Origin: Candidatus Deferrimicrobium sp.
GTDB taxonomy: Archaea > Asgardarchaeota > Lokiarchaeia > Helarchaeales > HEL-GB-A
Assembly: GCA_035531115.1 (NCBI GenBank)
Contig: DATKTP010000172.1
Location: forward strand, 18,965 to 82,964
Direction: 5' to 3'
Length of the DNA stretch: 64,000 nucleotides
The notes below the pieces were generated by a model. It did not search any database. It saw only the letters and a program-made list of their open reading frames with translations, and was not told the origin of the DNA. The position numbers were made by a program, and so were the translations under genes. Positions 1 to 42,832 of the stretch are shown here, one piece after another. How positions within the stretch are numbered: position 1 is the stretch's first letter; every line of letters begins with the position of its first letter.

Positions 1-1015
1 TAATTATGGGTTCACCGGTCTTTCTTAAAAACTCAAATGCGTCTTGAATTGCTTTAAATGAAAATCTATGGGTAATCAACTTTTTAACATTGACCTGTTT
101 TTTTTCCAATAACGAAATCGCTATTGGATACGTATTGGCATACCGAAAAGAACCCAGTATATCTATTTGGTTATCTACTATTTTCGCTAAGGGCAATGGA
201 ATGTATTGCTCATGAGGAACGCCAATTTGAAGGATTTTCCCCCCCCTTTTAACAACTTCTAGAGCGTCTTGAATCGATTTTGTTGCTCCAGATGCTTCAA
301 AAACGACATCTACACCATCTTGTTGTGTTTGATCTAATATTAATGTTCGCGGATCTTGATTTCGTGCATTAATTTTAACAACTTTTTCATCGATAAGGTC
401 TAATCGACCTTGTGATATATCTGTCACAAAAATCTCAGAAATTCCATAGGCTAATACAACGGCTAACGTAACTCTTCCAATGGGTCCTTGCCCAAAAATT
501 GCTATTTTGTCATTATGACGCAAATTAGCTCTATCTACCGCATGAATGCCTACGGAGAGCGGCTCAATCATGGCTCCCTCCTCACAACTTACCGCTGGAG
601 GGAGTTTATAAACAAGATGACTTGGCATTACAAGAAATTCACTAAATGCCCCATTTACAGGGCTAGCTGCTAAAAAGATTACATCTGGACACAGGTTATA
701 ACGTCCTGTCTTACAATAAATACACCTTCCACAGGTGCGTCCTGGTTCAATTGCAACTCTATCGCCAATTTTCAATCCGGCGACTTCTGCCCCAATTTTG
801 ATTATTTCTCCAGCAGCTTCATGTCCTAGTATGAAAGGCTCAGAAAAAGCGTAGGTTCCGCATATACCTGTTTTGTAATATTGAAAATCAGAACCGCATA
901 TTCCTACTGCTTTTATTTTAATTAAAACTTCTTCATGCTCTGGACTAGCTATTTCTCGTTCCTCTATCCTAATATCTTGAACCTTGTGTAAAACTGCTAC
1001 TTTCATTCTTGCCAT
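1..1015 (-). CDS. Zn-dependent alcohol dehydrogenase family (threonine/sorbitol dehydrogenase-like), 3' end runs off window
   Basis: Manual translation of minus strand from ATG at 1015: MARMKVAVLHK...GICGSDFQYY...GHEAAGEI...CGRCIYCKTGRYNLC...GQGPIGRVT; GroES-like and Rossmann motifs of MDR Zn-ADH. Confidence 0.8.
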   Translation of the reverse strand, partial: MARMKVAVLHKVQDIRIEEREIASPEHEEVLIKIKAVGICGSDFQYYKTGICGTYAFSEPFILGHEAAGEIIKIGAEVAGLKIGDRVAIEPGRTCGRCIYCKTGRYNLCPDVIFLAASPVNGAFSEFLVMPSHLVYKLPPAVSCEEGAMIEPLSVGIHAVDRANLRHNDKIAIFGQGPIGRVTLAVVLAYGISEIFVTDISQGRLDLIDEKVVKINARNQDPRTLILDQTQQDGVDVVFEASGATKSIQDALEVVKRGGKILQIGVPHEQYIPLPLAKIVDNQIDILGSFRYANTYPIAISLLEKKQVNVKKLITHRFSFKAIQDAFEFLRKTGEPII

Positions 1016-1054
1016 TACAGGTTCCTACCTTTAATTTCTTTCTTTAACGAATAA

Positions 1055-2233
1055 TTATAAATAATCTATCAATTTAATACCAGATAAGAAGTAATTTGCT
1101 AAAAGATCTTCCGCATAGATTTTATGAAATGATTTCGGCAAATCTCTATACGTTATATCAGGTGATTTTAGGTCTGATATCTCTCTGGAATTGTACGTAT
1201 TCCAAAAGAGGATCATTTTGTCCATTATATCCTTTTGTTTAACGAAATTGATAAGCCCTGCAAAACATTTCGCAGTATAAGTGGTATCTAAAAGAATATT
1301 TTCGGTTTTTTTCATTAATTCTAATGCATCTACTCCTTCAGGAGTAATTTTCCCATATTCCCCTCCATAATATTCATCGAGAACCAGCGGTTTTTCTTGA
1401 AATCTAACATTGGGGATTGATTCATCTCGTTTCCGTAAATATTTAAGCGTTTTTTTCGCTAGTTTCCTAACTGCATTTGCATAAGAAAACGTCCGGTTGT
1501 ATAATGAAAAAATTTTTGGCACGACGCGGACTCCAATGAGATTTATATCTAAATTTGCCAGTTTGAAGCCTAGTAATAATCCTGCCATTGTACCTAAGGA
1601 TCCACATGTAATAAATACATAATTTGGTTTTTCTACTCCATTTTCTATCTGAGATTTTAATTCAAACGCCGCATTTACGAATCCCACTACGCCTAGCGGG
1701 GAAGACCCGCCTCCTGGTAAGAAGTATGTATTTTTTCTTAAACGTCGAAAAACCAAATAATGCCCTAATCCCCAAAGTTCTCCATATGGCCCCAGCATTT
1801 CTGCGTCGAGTGAACGAAAAATCAGCAATTTTTTTTGCACATCTGCAGTAATTGGCTGATAAAACAGTATAAGAACGGGATTCAAATTCAACTTCTTGGA
1901 AAAAATAGCTGTTGCTAAACAATGATTAGATCCTAACCCCCCTAATGTTAATATATCTGTTTTTTTCTTTTCTATAGCATCTGCCAGCACGAATTCTAAT
2001 TTCCTGGGCTTATTTCCCCCGTAATCTGCGGTAGATTGGTCATCCCGTTTAATATAAAGGTGTGGATAATTAAGTTCCGCCCCTAACGATTTCAATTGTT
2101 GCACATCTGTTTTATTAATCAATGAAATATGCGGTAATTTTTCTCCCAATCTTGGATACTCTTCAAATATGAGTGGTGGTTTTTGCGCCATTTTTCCCAG
2201 ACCCGAAAATTCATTCATTTTACTTTTTTTCAC
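1055..2233 (-). CDS. PLP-dependent D-cysteine desulfhydrase / ACC deaminase family enzyme
   Basis: 392 aa ORF; motif YIKRDDQ...GGNKPRKLE typical of ACC-deaminase/D-Cys desulfhydrase PALP family. Confidence 0.7.
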   Translation of the reverse strand: MKKSKMNEFSGLGKMAQKPPLIFEEYPRLGEKLPHISLINKTDVQQLKSLGAELNYPHLYIKRDDQSTADYGGNKPRKLEFVLADAIEKKKTDILTLGGLGSNHCLATAIFSKKLNLNPVLILFYQPITADVQKKLLIFRSLDAEMLGPYGELWGLGHYLVFRRLRKNTYFLPGGGSSPLGVVGFVNAAFELKSQIENGVEKPNYVFITCGSLGTMAGLLLGFKLANLDINLIGVRVVPKIFSLYNRTFSYANAVRKLAKKTLKYLRKRDESIPNVRFQEKPLVLDEYYGGEYGKITPEGVDALELMKKTENILLDTTYTAKCFAGLINFVKQKDIMDKMILFWNTYNSREISDLKSPDITYRDLPKSFHKIYAEDLLANYFLSGIKLIDYL

Positions 2234-2299
2234 AATAATTTATTATACATAATGATTGAATTATTATACATTTCTCATAACTATTAAAAGGAGTTTGAA

Positions 2300-3151
2300 A
2301 TGATGCGAGAATTTGAGACGATTAAATTTGAACAACGGGACAATGGACTGAGTATTTTAACCTTGAATCGACCGAACAAGCTAAATGCGCTGTCGATTCA
2401 ACTTTTGGAAGAGTTTAATGAAGTTCTGGATTATTTAAATTGGAATTTTGATTGTCGTGTTTTAATTATTACAGGTGCAGGGCGAGCTTTTTGCTCAGGA
2501 ACTGATCTTAACGAAGCTCCCGATTTACAAAAAGGAAGATCGAAACGATACGAGCATCTCCAATTCCTCAATATGCATGATCCAATCAAATCAAACTTCT
2601 ACGGACAGAAATGGGCTGCAAATACGATAATCAAATTAAGAATGATCCCCCAACCGATTATTGCCGCTGTGAATGGTGCCGCTTCAGGTGGGGGTTTTGC
2701 AATAACAATGGCATGTGACATCCGCATTGCTTCTACAGAAGCCCGATTCAACAATGCTTTTATCAAGATTGGGGTCTCGGGATGTGACTTCGGAAGCTCG
2801 TATTTTCTGCCACGCTTAATAGGGCTCTCCCGCGCTTCTGAAATACTATATACCGGGCGATTTTTTGATGCCGCAGAGGCTGAACGCATCGGATTCGTCT
2901 CACAAGTAGTACCCCCTGAAAAATTAATGGATACCGCACTCACTTTAACAGAGGACATGCTCCTAACAAAGAGTCCACTCGGCTTGCGTCTTACAAAGGA
3001 AGGAATTAATATGAACATCGATGCTCCCTCTCTTGAAGCTGCTGTGTTCTTGGAAAACCGGAATCAAGTTCTTACCGCTAATACGAAAGACGCTTCGGAA
3101 GGCGTGATCTCTTTCTTCGAGAAACGCAAACCAAAGTATGGACTTCGATGA
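2300..3151 (+). CDS. enoyl-CoA hydratase/isomerase (crotonase) family
   Basis: AAVNGAASGGGFAITMACDIRIA oxyanion-hole region, crotonase fold signature. Confidence 0.85.
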   Translation: MMREFETIKFEQRDNGLSILTLNRPNKLNALSIQLLEEFNEVLDYLNWNFDCRVLIITGAGRAFCSGTDLNEAPDLQKGRSKRYEHLQFLNMHDPIKSNFYGQKWAANTIIKLRMIPQPIIAAVNGAASGGGFAITMACDIRIASTEARFNNAFIKIGVSGCDFGSSYFLPRLIGLSRASEILYTGRFFDAAEAERIGFVSQVVPPEKLMDTALTLTEDMLLTKSPLGLRLTKEGINMNIDAPSLEAAVFLENRNQVLTANTKDASEGVISFFEKRKPKYGLR

Positions 3152-3249
3152 AATTATCTTTTATTTCCAACGGATGGAGTTTCTTCTTTAGATTTTTAGT
3201 TTCCAAAAAAGAGGAGGCTTTAAATATTTACAACATTAACAATATTGTA

Positions 3250-3435
3250 ATGGCAGCTATAAAAAGAATTCCTGTTTCCGAAGAAATCTGGAAGGAATTA
3301 TCCGGACTTAAAAAGCCAGGTCAAACCTTCGACCAGCTCCTCAATGAAATTATCGAACGAGAAAAAAAATATAGATTGCGACAAGAAATGAAGAAAATTG
3401 AAGCGGAGGAGGAATTTGTGGAGCTGGATCATTGA
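3250..3435 (+). CDS. putative antitoxin of RelE/ParE-type TA pair (start probably internal Met of the 3148 ORF)
   Basis: Small acidic protein; its stop overlaps the start of the downstream RelE-like ORF in ATGA. Confidence 0.45.
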   Translation: MAAIKRIPVSEEIWKELSGLKKPGQTFDQLLNEIIEREKKYRLRQEMKKIEAEEEFVELDH

Positions 3436-3713
3436 CCTATAGGCTTCTTATAAGTAAAAAAGCACTTAAATTTATTAATGGTCTTCCTGAAAAAAGTCAG
3501 CGAATTGTAAGGGATACGATTACAATCCTCTATGAGAATCCTTATCCAGATAAAGGAGGCGATAAGGAGAAATTGAATTTATCAGGTTATGAACTTTATA
3601 GAATGCATATAGGAAGAATTTTTACAGTATTTTATAGAATATTTGAGAATGAAGTAAGAATTTTAGATATTATGACAATTGAAAAGGCTCATAAAATATA
3701 TGGCCGACTGTAA
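3432..3713 (+). CDS. RelE/ParE-family toxin
   Basis: 93 aa, basic, RelE/ParE-like pattern; 4-bp overlap with upstream small ORF. Confidence 0.55.
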   Translation: MTYRLLISKKALKFINGLPEKSQRIVRDTITILYENPYPDKGGDKEKLNLSGYELYRMHIGRIFTVFYRIFENEVRILDIMTIEKAHKIYGRL

Positions 3714-3948
3714 TCTTCATATAAATCCATTTTAGGGTGGTAAAATCGATCCGCCCGCCCGTCAACCTTTCCACTTTGAATTTTTTAGTTTGAAATATAA
3801 TCAATAATAGAACTATTAGAAAGCCTTAAGACAATGAAGTAAAAAAAGAATATAATTTTCAGCCTTATTATTAATAGTAAAAAATACTATACAATGCAGA
3901 GAGAAACGGTTGAACGAAGAAAAGAGAAAATATACTAGATGACTTATA

Positions 3949-5844
3949 ATGGATCAGCCAATAAATTCAAAAGAAGAGAAGAAAAAAGTAGAAAAAGCCA
4001 CCGAACGCATAGAAAAACGGTTAAAAGAAGAAAAAAAATCATATCTTAAATTAAGTATATTTGTTGTTATTATTGTTGATTTCTTAATATTTACAAGTGT
4101 ATTATTTCTTACTCAAAGCCCTTTTGCAATTGTCTTAGTGTATGGTTTTGTAATAATCACAACGTTAATAGCACTTATACCTGTAATGATCGAAGAATAC
4201 GAAAGAGTAGGACGGAAGCCTCCCGCTCTTGCCCGTCTTTTCAATTATTTTCTTAAAAAAGTACTTCCTATAGATCGGACTGTTATGCGAACAGGTCCTT
4301 CTGTTCTCCTAAGCTACATATTTCTCCTTACTATCGGAGGATTTCTTACTATAGGTATATATATTTTCGCTGATTTTATTACTCAGAATCCTAATATTTA
4401 TGATTATTTAATTAGCTCATCTGATCCAACCCAATTTGGATTCTTTAGTTTCGTTCAAAATTCAACAGCTAATTCATTCATACCCTCTATTCTTTGGTAT
4501 CTAATTATTTTTATACCCGTAATTTTCTGCTGCTTATTCTTAATAGCATCTGTTTATTATCGCAACACAGAGCCTTCAAAACTACTTAGTGTTGTTATTT
4601 TTTCTCCTGTTATGGTACTCTTGCCTTTAATTTTAAATCTCTCTTCTATTACTAGTCCTGCCCTAGTGATTTCCCTTATATTTATTGGAGGCTGGATTGT
4701 TACACTCTTAGTTTGGTATCGATTTACAAAGAGATCTGCTTTAATGTGCCTATCAATTTTATTTGCTCAGGTACTTGCATCTTTTATGATTTTATATGGT
4801 TTCATTTTTTATGAGGTCCGGGATACTTCCCATTATACTTCGAATTCCATTAATATTTCTTCATATTATAACCCGTTATTCCTTTTACTTTGGTTTGGAA
4901 TTCTTGTTTTCATACCACTTATTATAAAGGCTTTTGATCTTTTTTGGAAAGGGAAACTGAGGATCCTTGGCGTATTATTTTCAATAGGAGCGGCGGTTAT
5001 ATTCCAGTTCTATTTTTTCAATCTATTCAGTACTTCTGTATACGATGCATATCTACCTTGGGGCAATTTGGATGCCGCTGAAATTTTTGTGGGATCTGGG
5101 TTTTTCTTCTTTTATATCTATTTAATCCTTATACCCCTCTTTTTTATATTCGGCTATTTCCAAATTGGGATTGCTCGATGGCTCTATCGTTCTTTTCGAA
5201 ATTTTGGACATAAAAAGAATCATCCGAATGCTTTTCGAATTCTTGGAAGTTTATTTGCCACTTTATTCATTGTAGGTATTGTATTTGTCTATTATTTCTT
5301 CCTTTATAGTTCGGAGGATTATCAAAATATGTTTGCTCATATTACTTCTCTCTATAATGGGCAAATTATTCGATATTTGACGTTAGATCCTGCGGTGGTT
5401 CCGACCTTAATTTCGATAAAAAGCTATGCAGAATTATTCAATGTGTCTTCACTCGCAATCACGGTTGGGTTATTTGCATATTCTTCATACCGATCTGCTT
5501 ATAATTTTGCCCTCTCAACTGATAAAATCGAAGACCCAGATATTAAACGCTTCGGCGTTTTTAATTTTGTCATTTTTACCAGCCCTCCTGCTCGGAAAAC
5601 TCGCGTGATCTTCGGAATTTCTTTAATTTTTCTTTTTCTCGGAGTTCTAGCAATCTTCGCCTTTTTAAAAATACATACGGTCTTATTCAAGGACTTGATA
5701 GCATTTAATCAGGTACCCCCCAGTCTTATCATCTTCGCAAGCTTCGATGCCCTGAAACTCGGTGTCTCCATAATTGGTATGTTCGTTGCAATTGTGATTT
5801 TCTTCTTTATTCTCTCTAAAAGAAGAAAATTGCATAAAATTTAG
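3949..5844 (+). CDS. large polytopic membrane protein, unknown function
   Basis: 631 aa, more than 12 hydrophobic segments, K/E-rich N-terminus, no recognisable catalytic motif. Confidence 0.55.
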   Translation: MDQPINSKEEKKKVEKATERIEKRLKEEKKSYLKLSIFVVIIVDFLIFTSVLFLTQSPFAIVLVYGFVIITTLIALIPVMIEEYERVGRKPPALARLFNYFLKKVLPIDRTVMRTGPSVLLSYIFLLTIGGFLTIGIYIFADFITQNPNIYDYLISSSDPTQFGFFSFVQNSTANSFIPSILWYLIIFIPVIFCCLFLIASVYYRNTEPSKLLSVVIFSPVMVLLPLILNLSSITSPALVISLIFIGGWIVTLLVWYRFTKRSALMCLSILFAQVLASFMILYGFIFYEVRDTSHYTSNSINISSYYNPLFLLLWFGILVFIPLIIKAFDLFWKGKLRILGVLFSIGAAVIFQFYFFNLFSTSVYDAYLPWGNLDAAEIFVGSGFFFFYIYLILIPLFFIFGYFQIGIARWLYRSFRNFGHKKNHPNAFRILGSLFATLFIVGIVFVYYFFLYSSEDYQNMFAHITSLYNGQIIRYLTLDPAVVPTLISIKSYAELFNVSSLAITVGLFAYSSYRSAYNFALSTDKIEDPDIKRFGVFNFVIFTSPPARKTRVIFGISLIFLFLGVLAIFAFLKIHTVLFKDLIAFNQVPPSLIIFASFDALKLGVSIIGMFVAIVIFFFILSKRRKLHKI

Positions 5845-36613: not shown

Positions 36614-36844
36614 ATGGATGAAGAAATTCTTCAGGTTTTAAAAGATTTATCCTTTATCAACGCGGTCATCGCTACAGAACTGATCCGAATTGCAGAAAAT
36701 ACCGCCATTATGGCAAAAGGTCCGCAAGTTGTGGAAAAGTGTGCTGCAGAACATCAACAAATCAGTGAAAAAATTCTTGAATTGGTCGAATCTTATAAAC
36801 CAAATATAATAGAAATTCTCAAAAAGCACGTGCTGAAACATTAA
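36614..36844 (+). CDS. hypothetical small protein
   Basis: 76 aa ORF. Confidence 0.35.
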   Translation: MDEEILQVLKDLSFINAVIATELIRIAENTAIMAKGPQVVEKCAAEHQQISEKILELVESYKPNIIEILKKHVLKH

Positions 36845-36911
36845 CAAACATTTCAAAAACTTTTTATTTTTTCCTTTTTTCTAATCCAATAAAAAGCGTT
36901 AGGGATGAAAG

Positions 36912-37121
36912 ATGAGCATCGAACGAAGAAGACGTCTGAAAAAGAGATCCAAAGGCGAAACGAGTCAAAAAGAAACCAAACAAAAGAAATCTCGGAGACT
37001 TATTGTTCCTAAAAAGGAATTTACGGAAGAAGAAATTAAAGCGAGAAAAAAAGCCCAACGCATTAGTATGTTCGATAAGAAAAAGAATCTTCATAAAAAG
37101 ATCACCGAAGGATCTTCATAA
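36912..37121 (+). CDS. highly basic small protein (K/R-rich)
   Basis: 69 aa, about 40% Lys/Arg, nucleic-acid-binding-like composition. Confidence 0.4.
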   Translation: MSIERRRRLKKRSKGETSQKETKQKKSRRLIVPKKEFTEEEIKARKKAQRISMFDKKKNLHKKITEGSS

Positions 37122-37155: not shown

Positions 37156-38016
37156 TTGTTAATAGATGAGTTAAGTAAGAATTATTGTGATGATACAGTG
37201 ATTAGGGACATTTGGATAGTGGAAAAGGCAGGAGGTCGGTGTCTTTTTCATAGAACTTATGGGCCAATGGGTCTGGATCCTGATTTACTCTCGAGTTACT
37301 TAACTGGGATTAATACCTTTAGCGAGGCAGAACTGGGCGATACCGGTATTGAATGCATTGAAATGGGAAACATGAAATGGGTCTATATAAATTGGGAAAA
37401 TAAATTACTTTTAGTGGCAGCCGCCGATAAATTTGAGGACCCCACTGTATTGCACCATCAGTTAGACGTTGTTTGCCAGCACTTCCTAGACCATTTCAAG
37501 ATTGATAGGGACTTCTTATCTAAATGGTCGGGGAATGTAACCATGTTTTCTAAATTTGGTCCGAATATAGATGAGTTAATTAACGATTGGAAGCAAGTCT
37601 CAAAGGTTACCGATATCGCAAAAAAGATGAATCTCCTTGAGGTATATCAACAGATTTTTCATGCGTTTGCTAAAGTTGTTCCAACGATACGACCCGAAGG
37701 GCGAAAAGAATTAGCTGAGAGAATGGCGGAACTAAAAACAAGTTTTCCCCCTTACTTTGAAAAAGTTACCTATGGAAATGCTGGGTGGGATATCCTTTCA
37801 GCAGATGTAACCGATCCTCGATGCAAGGAATATAAATTAAGAGAGGAATTACAAAATTTATTAAATGCCTTTGTTTCCGAAATGAAATCTATTTTTAAAG
37901 AAGAGTTGTTTTTTGAAATTGCGAAGAAATTAGTTTATCCTAAATTATTATCCGACTGGAGCCGTATTCGAGAACTAGAAATAGATGAAGCGCTACTCCA
38001 AATTTTCTTGATTTAA
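37156..38016 (+). CDS. longin-like (SNARE-like superfamily) domain protein with helical C-terminal region
   Basis: N-term beta-alpha-beta-beta-alpha pattern IWIVEKAGGRCLF / LLSSYLTGINTF / LLLVAAADKFEDP..LHHQLDVVCQHF, comparable to longin/sigma-adaptin YLVLCEAAFPK... Confidence 0.4.
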   Translation: MLIDELSKNYCDDTVIRDIWIVEKAGGRCLFHRTYGPMGLDPDLLSSYLTGINTFSEAELGDTGIECIEMGNMKWVYINWENKLLLVAAADKFEDPTVLHHQLDVVCQHFLDHFKIDRDFLSKWSGNVTMFSKFGPNIDELINDWKQVSKVTDIAKKMNLLEVYQQIFHAFAKVVPTIRPEGRKELAERMAELKTSFPPYFEKVTYGNAGWDILSADVTDPRCKEYKLREELQNLLNAFVSEMKSIFKEELFFEIAKKLVYPKLLSDWSRIRELEIDEALLQIFLI

Positions 38017-38122
38017 ATGGTCGGGGAAATAAACCATAATTTTAATGCGAAGTCTTTTACTGTCCCTTACTGATCCCAAAAAGCGATAAAAAAAATAGTT
38101 TCTTGAATTCAGTTTTGAGAAC

Positions 38123-38485
38123 TCACCAAAACCAAACCGCACCCATGATATACTTCCAATTTCCTGATTTTTTGCTCAATATTAGTGGAGATCCGATGCT
38201 TTTTGCACCTTCTGCATCAATTTCAACTTCGGCTCTATCGCCAGAAATACTAATAGATTTTATTGCGAATTTTTTATTCCATTTCTTTCCTAAGAGGGAA
38301 ATATTTGATTTAAAGGATTTTTCAAATTCTTCTGCAGTCTCTGTGTAACTCGATCCCATCTGTTCCTTGTTGCGTTCCCACATACCTTTGAAATCTGCGT
38401 TTTTAAGATACCATTTAGTGTCTCCTTTTTAGAGCGCCTTGATATATTCTTCCGCAAACTTTCTTACGTCATCTTCTTCCGTCAT
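38123..38485 (-). pseudogene. DUF4878-like small protein interrupted by in-frame TAA
   Basis: MTEEDDVRKFAEEYIKAL*KGDTKWYLKNADFKGMWERN... continuous in one frame; TAA at 38429-38431 where Lys is expected. Confidence 0.45.
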
Positions 38486-38734
38486 ACTATTATCACTTTT
38501 TAAATTAAATCGTAATTGTTGGTAAATGTTTATGAAAATTTATTTTAAAATATTAGTCCCTAAAACTACTTATTGAAATCGTATAACTTTTCTTTTCCAT
38601 TAAAGAAGCATTGAGATTTTCTATAATTACTTCTAATAATGAATGGAAAGATTATGTCTCAGGATATGACTTAATCAATAAAAAAAAAGGTTAATACTTC
38701 TAATAGATGAAGTCCAACTCCAAATTTTCTTACT

Positions 38735-39568
38735 CTAGAGTAAAATCCTATTAAAATTATCAGTCAGTAGCTCTGCAATCGGACCAATTGAAGAATGTGC
38801 CTCTGTTATTGCATAATAATAGAAGGGGACTGCGCCTTCCCCAAATTCCCCCAGAATATCTGAAATTTGAACTTTTACGCCAGGGTTGGTCATCACGACT
38901 AACTTGGGCTCCAATCCGGGCAGCGCTATGTTATTATAAAGAAGCTCCCCGTCTTGGAGAATGGATCCTTTACGTCCGATGTTACTTAAATAAATCGCAA
39001 TTTCTTCACGAGACATCCCATGCGAAAAGAGAATAGAGTTATCAAATGAAGTGATAAAGCAGGAGTGAACCTCCTCTGGAAACTTTTCCTCTATAAGGTA
39101 GTCTGCCGCTATTCGTAATTGCTCTTTTTTATTGTAAATTATATTTTCTGCAACTGCATCGTTCAATAAACCCTCAATGAATTGCCGCTCTTCATCGGAA
39201 ATATTTGGGACTTTTCCGACGCGGATCATATGTTCATAGCGAAATAATATTTTACTGTATATCCACTGTATTTTGTAATGTACCATTTGGTGAAATTGGT
39301 AGGGATCTGTAAAGCAAAGGACCATATATTCGCCAATAAAACTATAAACTCCGTCTATTCCATAAGGATCATCGGGAAATTCAGTAGGTAGGAACCTAAT
39401 ATAGGAAATTTCCTGTTTATAATTGCTGGCAAAGGTATGGAGTGCTGAAAGAAACCCCGCAATCAAAATGGGATTCCCCTCATGGAAGGCGGAAAGTTTC
39501 TCAGACCACGCATCCAGAAACAACGGAATCCCTGTCTTGCTCTGGATCGCTACGCCAAGTATTGCCAT
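38735..39568 (-). CDS. protein with two longin-like domains
   Basis: ILGVAIQSKTGIPLF / ILIAGFLSALHTFAS / YMVLCFTDPYQFHQMV; second unit FITSFDNSILFS...LVVMTNPG. Confidence 0.4.
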   Translation of the reverse strand: MAILGVAIQSKTGIPLFLDAWSEKLSAFHEGNPILIAGFLSALHTFASNYKQEISYIRFLPTEFPDDPYGIDGVYSFIGEYMVLCFTDPYQFHQMVHYKIQWIYSKILFRYEHMIRVGKVPNISDEERQFIEGLLNDAVAENIIYNKKEQLRIAADYLIEEKFPEEVHSCFITSFDNSILFSHGMSREEIAIYLSNIGRKGSILQDGELLYNNIALPGLEPKLVVMTNPGVKVQISDILGEFGEGAVPFYYYAITEAHSSIGPIAELLTDNFNRILL

Positions 39569-39741
39569 TTTTATTTTCAGTTCCTTGTCCTATTCTTTAA
39601 ATTGTGCGATAGAAATTATTAGTGCTTGATTATTATCATTATGATTTATAAATCCGTAAAGGGTGTGTAATGATTATTAGATATAGGTAAAAACAAAAGT
39701 TATTTATCTCTTTTCACGATACTCAATAAAGGTACATAATT

Positions 39742-40770
39742 ATGACGGAAAAAATGGATACGCCCGCCGAAGACAATGAACAAGCGCTGGAAATTAATCG
39801 AGAGGAATTATACGCTCAATTGGAGAAATGGCAAGCCGCACGTAAGTTCAACCAACAGTTGCAATATCAGTACAGCCAAGAAGTGACCAAATGGCGCGAA
39901 ATGAGAGATAAGATAAAAGACGAGATCAATACGATTCGAGAAGACGCGCTCAAGGAAAAGGCAATTCGGGACAAAATAAATAACGAAGTAGCGAAGTTAA
40001 AAGAAGATCGTTCTTCCGCAAATGTTCAGATTGCTGATCTAAAACTAAAGCGTAATTCTGCTTGGGAACAAATTAAAAATATTCGATCTAAGCTTCGATC
40101 ACTTATGGAACTTAAGAGAGATGAAAAAAAGAAACTAAAATCGGTCTATCCTTTAATGCGGCGTTTTGAAGAGCTCGATTGGACAATAATGACTAAATCC
40201 ATGCCTTTTGAAAAGGAACAAACTATGATGAACGAAATAGAGCAGATAATCAGCGAAATTTCAAAACAAAAACAGGAATTGGAAATAGAGTATGATGATG
40301 TTATCATTGATTTTGATGAAGCTAAAAAACAGATTGAGGAACTTAAAGAAGTTGCGCAACAATATCACGATCTAATGATCCAAACCGTGCAAGATGGTGA
40401 GAAAATTCACGAACGGATCCTCCATGATGTGAAAGAAAGTGAGCCCCACCATCAAGCGATGCTGGAAAAATTTGCCCAAATTGATGAACTGAAAAAAGAA
40501 GAGGAAGCGGCGCATCAAAAAATGGTTGAAAACTTGAAAGAACTGGATCTCCTGCGGAAAGGGATGGATGAAATTTATCAGGAACTTCGCGCGATTGAAA
40601 AGAAATTTACCTACCTGAAAAACCTCGAAGCCCTCCAAAAACTCAAAGAACAAGAGAAGATCCTTGACAAGAAAACCGAAGAAGCCTTGGCTAAGTATAA
40701 AAGTGGCAAAAAACTTACTATGGACGAATTCAGCCTTTTACTTAAAAAAAATTTAATCAAAACTGGTTGA
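39742..40770 (+). CDS. coiled-coil protein (E/K/Q-rich)
   Basis: 342 aa, heptad-like charged repeats throughout. Confidence 0.55.
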   Translation: MTEKMDTPAEDNEQALEINREELYAQLEKWQAARKFNQQLQYQYSQEVTKWREMRDKIKDEINTIREDALKEKAIRDKINNEVAKLKEDRSSANVQIADLKLKRNSAWEQIKNIRSKLRSLMELKRDEKKKLKSVYPLMRRFEELDWTIMTKSMPFEKEQTMMNEIEQIISEISKQKQELEIEYDDVIIDFDEAKKQIEELKEVAQQYHDLMIQTVQDGEKIHERILHDVKESEPHHQAMLEKFAQIDELKKEEEAAHQKMVENLKELDLLRKGMDEIYQELRAIEKKFTYLKNLEALQKLKEQEKILDKKTEEALAKYKSGKKLTMDEFSLLLKKNLIKTG

Positions 40771-40851
40771 ACCGTTCTACAAAAAAAAATTGAATTTAGA
40801 ACTAATTTTTCTGCAATTTACGTACAACTTTGAATGCTGGACTATTTCGGT

Positions 40852-41901
40852 TTACTGATACGAAGGAATATTTCCGAAAAAGAAATCTATAAGATCAATT
40901 GCTGATTTAAATTGATTCAGTTCAAGTACATCTTGAATTAATAGGTTGTTAAATCGGTTTTCAAATTCAATTATGAATTTTTTCAAGCTATCCCGAAGAT
41001 GTTTGGAAGATTTGGAGGTTATGAGCCCTACCGTCGTATAGTTAGCTTTTATAAAGATTAAAATTCCTTGCGAAAGCTTCATTTCCTCCAATTCACCGAT
41101 ATGCAATACTTCGATACTCATCTGTTGCAACGCTGAAAGTAATCCCGCAAGCAAATCTCCATCAATTTCTGATTTCTCGAATTGATGATCATAAATTGAG
41201 ATGCCTATTTTACTATGAATAACAGTCAATCTATGAACCCTATACGGTAATATGTATAGAAGCTCTGGATTTTTCACAAGCACGTATACAAGAATTAAAT
41301 TCATAATCGCCGCATAAAAACCCGAAAGAAAAAATCCTAAACCATAAAAAATCCAGCTAAAAATATAGCTCAAACAGCCTAGAGAAACTGTTATGATGGT
41401 TAAAAATAATGAGAGCTTTTTCAGATTTTTCGGAGCCTTCAAAGTGGAGCGAACTAAAAATAAAAACAGAAAAATAAGGTAAAAATCCATTAAAAGATCA
41501 TAAAAAGCTGCAAATGGTATTGTGGGAAGTATATAACTCCGAAAAATAGTAGTATAAATTAATAAAGCTCCTATTGCACTAACAATGCTTATCTTAATGA
41601 CATTAATGGATTCTCGGGTAACATTATCAATAAAAACTAAAAATGATAAAATGGCAATTACTGTGAATATATAGACGGTGCTGTATAAAGGCCAGTTAAT
41701 GTAATACATAAAATAATTAATTAAATATACCGTCCCAAGTAAGAAATTCTGCATTGCAAATGCACCCCATGAAAGGGCTGCATAAAGAAACGGTTGTACA
41801 TTTTTTGTTTTCCACTTCCAAATAAGAAGGATTGTACAAATCACAAAGACAGAAAAAAGCGTATATGATGTTAGGACCACTTGGATATTATAATCCATCA
41901 A
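40852..41901 (-). CDS. seven-TM membrane protein with C-terminal cytoplasmic longin-like domain
   Basis: About 7 hydrophobic helices in residues 1-215; C-term IGISIYDHQF...DLLAGLLSALQQMS...GILIFIKANYTTVGLITSK. Confidence 0.5.
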   Translation of the reverse strand: MMDYNIQVVLTSYTLFSVFVICTILLIWKWKTKNVQPFLYAALSWGAFAMQNFLLGTVYLINYFMYYINWPLYSTVYIFTVIAILSFLVFIDNVTRESINVIKISIVSAIGALLIYTTIFRSYILPTIPFAAFYDLLMDFYLIFLFLFLVRSTLKAPKNLKKLSLFLTIITVSLGCLSYIFSWIFYGLGFFLSGFYAAIMNLILVYVLVKNPELLYILPYRVHRLTVIHSKIGISIYDHQFEKSEIDGDLLAGLLSALQQMSIEVLHIGELEEMKLSQGILIFIKANYTTVGLITSKSSKHLRDSLKKFIIEFENRFNNLLIQDVLELNQFKSAIDLIDFFFGNIPSYQ

Positions 41902-42058: not shown

Positions 42059-42832
42059 TCATGGTCCAAGTCCAATGCCTGGCCATCCAACGGTCATGTG
42101 CCATCCGATTTTATCGACAAAGATGTACATACTTGAAAGTGTTCCTCCGAGCCCATGCGAAATCGAAACCGTCAGCATATTGGGCGTCTCATAAAAGTTC
42201 CATGCCCAAAACGTGCCCGATATAAACGTGAAAGCAACCAATGGGAAATTGAAGAGGTGATAACTGCCAAATATCACCCCTGTAAAGAGGGAAATGAAAA
42301 TTCTATTTCGCCGGTCATTTCCTGGAAAAATTTTTCGTAGCCGGACATGGATGAATGAGAGAAAGAGCACCTGCTGTAGCAGTCCCCACCCAATATAATA
42401 AATGAATTGGGCAATGAAATCGATGTATATATTTTCAAAACCGAACACCTCCAGCGAAAATCCCCCACCTTCCGGCGTCGTAATCGTGCCTATTATAAGC
42501 GCAATAAGAAAAATGCTCGCCACCATGCTGGATGTTAGAACCAGAAGCACATCCTTTGCACTTTTTTTTAGATTATCAGTACGAATAAAAAGCGTCTTCC
42601 AACTTCCAAACCCTCGCTCTGCACAGGTATCTTTATGGAGATATTGAGAGAAAAACAAGATATAAAGTAATAAAATCCCGCCCAGAATATACGCACTAAG
42701 AAGCAGGGGAAAAATATGTTCAAACAGTGCCACTAATAATATGATATAAAAATATACAAATGTAACGATGATTATATCAAATGCATGCCCTTTTCGTGAT
42801 TGCCAGAAACTCTTTTTCTCATTGTTTTTCAA
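42059..42832 (-). CDS. CPBP-family (CAAX protease/Abi-like) membrane protein with substituted catalytic motifs
   Basis: Motif 2 FGSYHL present; motif 1 reads LLQQVLF (EE->QQ, R->L); motif 3 SHGLGG lacks N/D. Confidence 0.5.
   Translation of the reverse strand: MKNNEKKSFWQSRKGHAFDIIIVTFVYFYIILLVALFEHIFPLLLSAYILGGILLLYILFFSQYLHKDTCAERGFGSWKTLFIRTDNLKKSAKDVLLVLTSSMVASIFLIALIIGTITTPEGGGFSLEVFGFENIYIDFIAQFIYYIGWGLLQQVLFLSFIHVRLRKIFPGNDRRNRIFISLFTGVIFGSYHLFNFPLVAFTFISGTFWAWNFYETPNMLTVSISHGLGGTLSSMYIFVDKIGWHMTVGWPGIGLGP

Follow-up and report, generated by a model that had tools for sequence, protein, structure and literature searches.

The membranes of eukaryotes owe their identity to small GTPases under the control of longin and roadblock platforms, and the origin of these regulators is a live question in eukaryogenesis. 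The locus described here, from a Helarchaeota-type Asgard archaeon, was proposed to hold three paralogous longin-like proteins around a coiled-coil protein, in an arrangement of the trafficking type. Are these domains longins, do the genes form a unit, and what would their products do? The four predicted ORFs, designated A (37156-38016, plus strand, 286 aa), B (38735-39568, minus strand, 277 aa), C (39742-40770, plus strand, 342 aa), and D (40852-41901, minus strand, 349 aa), were all found at these coordinates, within 4.7 kb of the 64-kb stretch of DNA that was analyzed (hereafter, the window). Full-length orthologues with 55 to 88% identity exist for each of them, which identifies all four as real genes. 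Transcription of A and B converges, that of B and C diverges from a 173-bp spacer, and that of C and D again converges; such an arrangement rules out an operon. Homologues of the cluster proteins carry the names Helarchaeota, Promethearchaeota, or Lokiarchaeota. Two small ORFs precede A on the plus strand (36614-37121) and encode products of 76 aa (36614-36844) and 69 aa (36912-37121), neither of which received an assignment in a Pfam scan; the 69-aa product is very basic, and its ORF ends 34 bp before A. Helarchaeota-type loci that extend this far keep both ORFs in the same order. An 86-aa ORF between A and B was considered as a component of the system and rejected, being unique to this contig. 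Genes for fibrillarin and Nop5 are located nearby, which together with the names of the homologues supports the Asgard origin of the DNA. As had been noted, no small GTPase gene is evident: a motif scan of the window revealed no ORF of at least 90 aa combining a P-loop with NKxD.

The original prediction assigned a common module of roughly 100 aa to A, B, and the C terminus of D. Pairwise BLAST between the domains was nearly silent, with B_N versus D_C as the top pair (E = 0.003), and was too weak to decide on homology; profile-profile comparisons were used instead. With whole proteins and shallow family alignments, hhalign aligned just the first 20 to 39 columns, at a probability of about 5%, and this weak signal was resolved by cutting the proteins into domains and deepening the D profile. 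In domain-level profile comparisons, A_N, B_N, and D_C were mutually best matches (E = 5e-4 to 1e-3), whereas control comparisons with A_C or B_C gave E values of 0.02 to 0.6; the observed score lay about 5 standard deviations over the null and was higher than in any of 80 column shuffles. The deep D-module profile, built from 142 sequences, matched A_N with a probability of 96.7% (E = 4.6e-10; 95 to 99 colinear columns) and B_N with a probability of 94.9% (E = 4.6e-8), as opposed to E values of about 0.1 for the A_C and B_C controls. Scanned across the whole window, this profile matched D, A (4e-8), and B (2e-3) only, the next ORF scoring 0.2. In each of the three families, conservation is highest in helix 1 and its flanks. 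These profile comparisons establish at the sequence level that A_N, B_N, and D_C are homologous, and the proposed module is thereby borne out.

Gene A encodes an N-terminal longin domain (A_N; 37201-37530, residues ~16 to 125) followed by a conserved C-terminal domain of ~160 aa (A_C; 37531-38013, residues 126 to 286). Its start codon is uncertain, most orthologues starting near residue 19 (MIRDIW). All named records among the 22 A homologues are from Helarchaeota or Promethearchaeota. The Pfam family PF19036 (Fuz_longin_1) matches 21 of these 22 members, all weakly (best E = 4.4e-6), and the window copy scores 20.8 bits (E = 4.6e-4), which is below the curated gathering cut-off of 26.1 bits; precomputed Pfam records nevertheless list PF19036 for two A homologues (P0044 and P0046). 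When the A-family profile was compared with PDB sequences, the best matches were to the first longin domain (LD1) of MON1 (E = 0.045). By sequence, A_N is thus assigned to the first-longin type of MON1/FUZ/HPS1. A_C gave no match in the family Pfam scan or in the profile search of PDB sequences, and profile-profile comparisons revealed no similarity between it and the longin module.

The AF2 model of B is confident (pLDDT 89.6, pTM 0.87), and a Pfam scan of this protein gave no match. Its N-terminal domain (B_N; 39209-39568, residues 1 to 120) is predicted to consist of two strands, a helix, three strands, and two helices, which is the longin order, and it superposes on known longins. Two residues of the first hairpin, G13 and P15, do not vary across the family, and helix 1 (PILIxGFLSAL) is conserved. 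The C-terminal domain (B_C; 38738-39130, residues ~147 to 277) has a roadblock-like element order in the model (helix, two strands, helix, three strands, helix), and its profile comparisons with the longin module revealed no significant sequence similarity (E = 0.02 to 0.6). Of the two module copies originally predicted in B, the N-terminal one therefore stands on the hhalign match, whereas the second is discernible by predicted structure only, which suggests that B_C is related to longin/roadblock domains. The top Foldseek matches of B were exclusively longin/roadblock proteins, and the 14 best were all subunits of tri-longin RabGEFs (MON1, Fuzzy, HPS1, HPS4, and Inturned), aligned over the whole protein. 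The model thus depicts B as a longin plus roadblock-like tandem whose overall fold is closest to these subunits.

The 7-TM part of D (D_N; 41266-41901, residues 1 to 212) comprises seven predicted transmembrane helices, identified by hydropathy and by AF2 helices of moderate or low confidence. The loops at residues 28 to 35 and 155 to 162 are rich in K/R, which suggests an N-out, C-in topology. The remaining residues (D_C; 40855-41265, residues 213 to 349) correspond to the longin-type module, as identified by profile search and hhalign. From its sequence, D accordingly reads as a 7TM protein whose cytoplasmic tail carries a longin-type module. It has 9 close homologues, and an exhaustive profile search expanded the D-module family to at least 959 clusters at 50% identity, whose named members are all from Asgard archaea except for one likely mislabelled record. 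Among the 139 family members scanned, the module yielded no more than weak Pfam matches, most commonly to Intu_longin_1 (5 members) and Fuz_longin_1 (3 members), and the D-family profile retrieved nothing relevant from PDB sequences. Collectively, the confident model of B, the Fuz_longin_1 matches across the A family, and the homology of the D module to that of A uphold the longin-type fold, as modelled for B_N and as probable for A_N and D_C; the domains were not assigned to GAF or V4R, the unrelated folds named as the outcome that would count against it.

Gene C fits its description as an E/K-rich coiled-coil gene, with 29.5% E+K and just four residues each of Pro and Gly. Seven of nine C orthologues match PF23435 (DUF7121) over nearly its full length (best E = 3.1e-6), although coiled-coil composition may inflate these scores. 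The same caution applies to the window copy, whose match is weak (9.8 bits, E = 0.62) and below the gathering cut-off of 29 bits over the full-length profile; the orthologue at locus L003 reaches 22.5 bits. No transmembrane segment was predicted in C, no SNARE-family or synaptobrevin match was found in Pfam, and the family profile gave nothing relevant against PDB sequences. By sequence criteria, C is not a SNARE but probably a divergent DUF7121 coiled-coil protein, and its casting as a trafficking-type partner is not supported, given the lack of a SNARE match and of a membrane anchor and the match of its family to an uncharacterized one.

The order A, B, C is confined to Helarchaeota-type contigs, of which at least 12 distinct ones show it, with C next to B in every such locus that reaches far enough; A, B, and C thus form a lineage-conserved syntenic block. 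B was recovered at 2 loci in the scan of genome contigs, and the metagenome scan contributed 8 more, each again Helarchaeota-type. None of the related loci, L003 and L005 included, has D at this position. The flanking genes pyrD, pyrK, and an M20 peptidase gene are also syntenic on contigs long enough to show them, and the adjacency of A and B is therefore no proof of functional linkage. The phyletic range outside the Helarchaeota-type clade rests on three distant homologues, one of A (L010) and two of B (L007 and L011). A and B are not neighbors at these loci, and no C homologue adjoins either of them. At L011, the B homologue adjoins a large protein with a D-type module, which also shows a weak, sub-threshold match to Invasin_D3 (Ig-like) in Pfam. 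At L010, the A homologue has a Ras-family GTPase gene and a Robl_LC7 gene no more than 8 kb away.

How do these proteins relate to known longin and roadblock systems? Tri-longin RabGEF subunits (MON1/FUZ/HPS1, PF19036; CCZ1/INTU/HPS4, PF19031) contain three consecutive longin/roadblock-like domains, whereas B has two in its 277 aa and A combines a single longin domain with an unrelated C-terminal domain; no split of A and B into a MON1-like and a CCZ1-like class is visible. A difference in domain orientation keeps the TM-scores of B against these subunits down at about 0.37. We also compared the proteins with described Asgard longin/roadblock proteins (asCOGs of Liu et al.; Tran et al. 2024; the Loki Roadblock-Longin of PDB 8yqg; MK-D1 and Thor roadblocks), from which B differs by its order of longin followed by roadblock-like domain. 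The longin GAP complexes (FLCN-FNIP, GATOR1 NPRL2/3, and C9orf72-SMCR8) have the longin fold in common with B, and the invariant G13 and P15 of B lie in the loop before strand 2, the site of the GP motif. This motif and a catalytic arginine finger characterize the GAP class, of which Asgard look-alikes exist (PMC12290439). In B, this combination was not recovered, the motif reads G-I-P, and the listed structural matches do not include the catalytic GAP longins FLCN, NPRL2, or SMCR8, so that a GAP-type reading of this protein was rejected. Longin SNAREs (Sec22b, Ykt6, and VAMP7) carry longin, coiled-coil SNARE motif, and anchor in one polypeptide, whereas here C is a separate soluble protein and the transmembrane protein D has no coiled coil; no coiled-coil motif plus anchor is linked to a longin in this locus. 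Finally, D resembles 7TMR-DISM receptors (PF07695) in that seven predicted transmembrane helices precede a cytoplasmic module, but it is devoid of the extracellular DISMED domain and carries a longin module in place of a cyclase, kinase, or HD-GYP output; 4 of the 139 family members match PF07695, weakly (best E = 0.02).

A compact prokaryotic locus of this kind had been deemed noteworthy in itself, a view that loses its ground in an Asgard organism, where longins and roadblocks are known to be expanded. Published surveys count 130 asCOGs of the Roadblock/LC7 superfamily, longins among them, and some 41 longin domains for a single Loki genome (bioRxiv 10.1101/2020.10.19.343400; PMC10933270). 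The asCOGs are distributed patchily and in a lineage-specific manner (bioRxiv 10.1101/2020.10.19.343400), and Roadblock/longin dimers have been described as conserved GTPase platforms with dozens per Asgard genome (PMC10933270). A limited literature search returned nothing specific on Mon1/Ccz1 or tri-longin proteins in Asgard archaea, on 7TM-longin proteins, or on DUF7121, and neither a MON1/FUZ-type assignment nor a 7TM-longin family this large was found there.

We favor, with good though incomplete confidence, a reading of the region as three Asgard-expanded longin members of the Roadblock/LC7 superfamily that would be GTPase platforms by analogy, with A, B, and C as a block and D as a chance neighbor. 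In known systems such as Mon1-Ccz1, TRAPP, MglB, and Ragulator, longin and roadblock domains dimerize, and the resulting platform binds GTPases of the Ras superfamily and serves as their exchange factor or GAP. On this analogy, A, B, and D probably act as platforms for small GTPases. The GTPases served by A and B would be products of genes at other places in the genome, and the platform would be a homodimer, an A-B heterodimer, or the two domains of B packed against each other. D may bring such a platform to the membrane, with a 7TM sensor controlling it, and it would have come to lie here by chance, from a very large family. Two points count against the platform reading: the window offers no GTPase gene as a partner, and some longin domains, such as those of SNAREs and SRX, do not regulate GTPases catalytically. 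We give a rather low, but not trivial, probability to the alternative that the modules have the longin fold and serve as dimerization or sensor modules in prokaryote-type signaling, for instance as output or adaptor of the 7TM receptor D. The weak resemblance of D to 7TMR-DISM receptors, the joining of a D-type module with a weak Invasin_D3 match at L011, the published Asgard fusions of NPRL2-like longin domains to two-component signaling domains (bioRxiv 10.1101/2020.10.19.343400), and the missing GTPase gene all fit that alternative. However, by structure B stands nearest to GTPase exchange factors and GTPase-binding platforms, and the missing neighbor says little, since the small GTPase genes studied in MK-D1 are generally not in operons with longin/roadblock genes (PMC10933270); the GTPase and Robl_LC7 genes at L010 also speak against it.

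The notion that A to D make up one membrane-trafficking-like module, with C as a SNARE- or tether-like partner and D as anchor, draws on their close packing, on the A, B, C order in every Helarchaeota-type locus extending far enough, on the short divergent intergenic region of B and C, and on the D-type module beside the distant B homologue at L011. We judge it improbable, more so than the signaling alternative: D is missing from all related loci, the gene orientations are mixed, C has neither anchor nor SNARE match and falls with DUF7121, the distant A and B homologues are unlinked, and the equally conserved housekeeping flanks, where contigs show them, render synteny uninformative at this distance. 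These observations do not sustain the originally proposed four-gene unit. Even less credible, to the point of being nearly dismissed, is a superficial longin likeness of some other small alpha/beta fold (GAF, PAS, V4R, or profilin). Foldseek did return weak matches of B to PAS/GAF-containing proteins (DosP, NifL, and phytochrome; E about 0.01 to 0.02), and the model of D_C, built with the 9 close homologues, has a pLDDT below 50 and is unusable for a fold search, but for B this explanation is already largely refuted.

A bolder extension of the platform reading, to which we attach only a small chance, would cast A and B, as MON1-like products of adjacent genes, in the role of archaeal precursors to the tri-longin RabGEF heterodimers of eukaryotes (Mon1-Ccz1, Fuzzy-Inturned, and HPS1-HPS4), pairing via their first longin domains and activating an Asgard Rab- or Arf-like GTPase, with D-type 7TM-longins as a receptor-coupled version that directly recruits or activates a small GTPase. 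A, B, and D leave unchanged the accepted picture of Asgard archaea as rich in longins. What they add is a family of two-domain Asgard proteins, that of B, whose only strong structural matches are RabGEF subunits of the MON1/Fuzzy/HPS1 type; a neighboring family, that of A, with sequence-level similarity to the first longin domain of MON1/FUZ/HPS1; and, as a further lead, the very large 7TM-longin family of D. These families are specific candidates for asking whether tri-longin GEFs have archaeal roots and whether small GTPases are coupled to membrane receptors in Asgard cells.

Genes A (37156-38016, + strand, 286 aa), B (38735-39568, − strand, 277 aa), C (39742-40770, + strand, 342 aa), and D (40852-41901, − strand, 349 aa) are four real genes, with transcription converging within the pairs A-B and C-D and diverging from the 173-bp spacer between B and C. 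The window derives from a 110-kb metagenomic contig whose genes for fibrillarin, Nop5, RNase HII, PyrD/PyrK, DnaK/DnaJ, and an M20 peptidase around the A-D region identify the host as an archaeon. Since all organism-named homologues of A and B are labeled Helarchaeota, Promethearchaeota, or Lokiarchaeota, this host is an Asgard archaeon of the Helarchaeota type. In one NCBI record, a protein identical to D is assigned to a bacterium, "Candidatus Deferrimicrobium sp."; because its contig carries archaeal fibrillarin, Nop5, and Helarchaeota-like genes, this probably reflects a mis-binned MAG contig. Across the whole window (1-64000), neither a tRNA gene nor a match to any Rfam family at the gathering threshold was found.

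BLAST between the putative domains of A, B, and D gave next to no signal, and profile comparison of the whole proteins confined the alignment to the first strands and helix 1. Domain-cut family alignments recovered the module-bearing parts of the three proteins (A_N, B_N, and D_C) as mutually best matches (E 5e-4 to 1e-3), with scores attained by 0 of 80 column-shuffled controls; the C-terminal domains of A and B (A_C and B_C) yielded no match in this domain-level comparison (E 0.02-0.6). An exhaustive profile search with the C-terminal module of D gathered 959 clusters at 50% identity, from which we built a 142-sequence alignment. This deep profile matched A_N with a probability of 96.7% (E 4.6e-10; 95-99 colinear columns) and B_N with 94.9% (E 4.6e-8), against controls of E ∼0.1, and retrieved only D, A, and B among all ORFs of the window. 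On these profile comparisons, shuffles, and searches, the three modules are homologous at the sequence level, which confirms the original prediction of a common module; the motifs on which it drew correspond to helix 1 and strand 5.

The predicted longin fold was likewise supported. An AlphaFold model of B, built on a 23-sequence family alignment, was confident (pLDDT 89.6; pTM 0.87) and displayed two strands, a helix, three strands, and two helices in the N-domain, i.e., the longin order, followed past a helical linker by a C-domain with the roadblock order (helix, two strands, helix, three strands, helix). All 14 Foldseek matches at E ≤ 3e-4 were subunits of tri-longin RabGEFs (seven matches to MON1, together with Fuzzy, HPS1, HPS4, and Inturned), each aligned over ∼300 columns, that is, the entire B, with PAS/GAF proteins appearing at low probability only. 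TM-scores were low (∼0.37), and the likeness therefore lies in the domain folds and their order rather than in rigid-body arrangement. Of the two module copies anticipated in B, the N-domain is thus one; the second domain, as modeled, shares its structural superfamily, yet profile comparison showed no sequence similarity to the module. In the A family, 21 of 22 members matched Fuz_longin_1 (best E 4.4e-6), the Pfam entry for the first longin domain in FUZ, MON1, and HPS1, although the window copy scored 20.8 bits, under the 26.1-bit cut-off; the best PDB matches of the A-family profile were to MON1 LD1 (E 0.045). Because the AlphaFold model of D failed in the module, assignment of D_C as a putative longin-type module rests on homology to A_N/B_N and on weak Pfam matches, most commonly Intu_longin_1 and Fuz_longin_1 among 139 family members scanned, none of which has a Pfam domain assigned over the module.

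Residues 4-210 of D contain seven predicted helices, and the loops at residues 28-35 and 155-162, rich in K/R, are consistent with an N-out, C-in topology that would place the longin module in the cytoplasm. Most of the 959 relatives share this layout (350-440 aa; module at approximately residues 220-353). Those with names are Lokiarchaeota, Lokiarchaeia, or Promethearchaeota, except for P0212, a probably mislabeled "Candidatus Nanopelagicaceae bacterium" protein. Directly beyond D, an Rce1-like CAAX/CPBP intramembrane protease is encoded at 42059-42832 (− strand; Pfam E 1e-6). Eukaryotic Rce1 processes prenylated small GTPases, and its family is also common across prokaryotes. The coiled-coil protein C is 29.5% Glu+Lys, with neither a predicted TM segment nor a SNARE-type match. 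The uncharacterized Pfam family DUF7121, mentioned in no paper of the literature searched, matches seven of nine C orthologues at near full length (best E 3.1e-6).

The original prediction further regarded the four genes as a compact trafficking locus, a view that our comparisons do not support. All Helarchaeota-type contigs of sufficient reach (L003-L006, L008, L009, and L012-L019; 55-71% identity) keep a fixed order of small ORF, small basic ORF, A, convergent B, and C. On contigs long enough to show them, the pyrD/pyrK and M20 peptidase genes on the flanks are kept just as well, and the order thus represents clade-level synteny rather than specific linkage. Cotranscription of A-D is impossible, the spacing between A and B ranges from 5 bp to ∼1.2 kb, and only the contig of the window has D in this place, with an fn3 protein or nothing elsewhere. 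Distant homologues of B (L007 and L011) have neither A nor C nearby, and that of A (L010) has neither B nor C. These points argue against a functional unit. Two hints point towards linkage. In L011, a distant B homologue (42% identity) adjoins a large protein (1672-5121, − strand; at least 1149 aa) with a longin module of the D_C type (tblastn E 3e-7) and a weak, sub-threshold Invasin_D3 (Ig-like) match, so this module is also fused to a protein far from the 7TM type. In L010, the region 150-4267, within 8 kb of the distant A homologue (42% identity), encodes a small GTPase of the Ras family (Pfam E 3e-47), a Robl_LC7 protein (E 1.3e-10), and a third protein weakly matching the RWD domain, slightly below the Pfam cut-off; without direct adjacency, the GTPase and Robl_LC7 genes fit the density at which such genes usually occur in Asgard archaea. 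A motif scan found no small GTPase in the window, as predicted, and MK-D1 small GTPase genes generally lie outside longin/roadblock operons (PMC10933270).

Both small ORFs upstream of A, of 76 aa (36614-36844, + strand) and 69 aa (36912-37121, + strand; K/R-rich, very basic, ending 34 bp before A), lack a family assignment; their order is kept in Helarchaeota-type loci that extend far enough. The stop codons of A and B are separated by a 718-bp gap, against 5-6 bp for most relatives and ∼1.2 kb for L014 and L019. This gap contains a ∼120-codon frame (38123-38487, − strand) with an in-frame TAA after codon 19 (MTEEDDVRKFAEEYIKAL*KGDTKW...) and, past it, an 86-aa ORF present on this contig only. 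The gap thus resembles an insertion site of variable content, here with a possible pseudogene.

As dimers, longin and roadblock domains form platforms for small-GTPase binding that function as GEFs or GAPs (PMC10933270). By analogy, A and B would be small-GTPase platform proteins, and D may tether the same kind of platform to a 7TM sensor. In each of the three families, conservation is highest at helix 1 and its flanks, which would fit a conserved interaction surface; we regard pairing of A and B with each other as possible, if somewhat improbable. The Asgard longin/roadblock expansion is already well documented, with 130 patchy, lineage-specific Roadblock/LC7-superfamily asCOGs (bioRxiv 10.1101/2020.10.19.343400), ∼41 longin domains in one Loki genome (PMC10933270), and longins of the FLCN/SMCR8-like kind (PMC12290439); A, B, and D are therefore additional examples of a known protein class. 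The literature searched describes no MON1/FUZ-type two-domain Asgard protein, no pairing of such a protein with a Fuz_longin_1-like neighbor, and no 7TM-longin family of the size of the D family, which does not in itself demonstrate novelty for any of them. The two-domain protein, its Fuz_longin_1-like neighbor, and the large 7TM-longin family merit follow-up.
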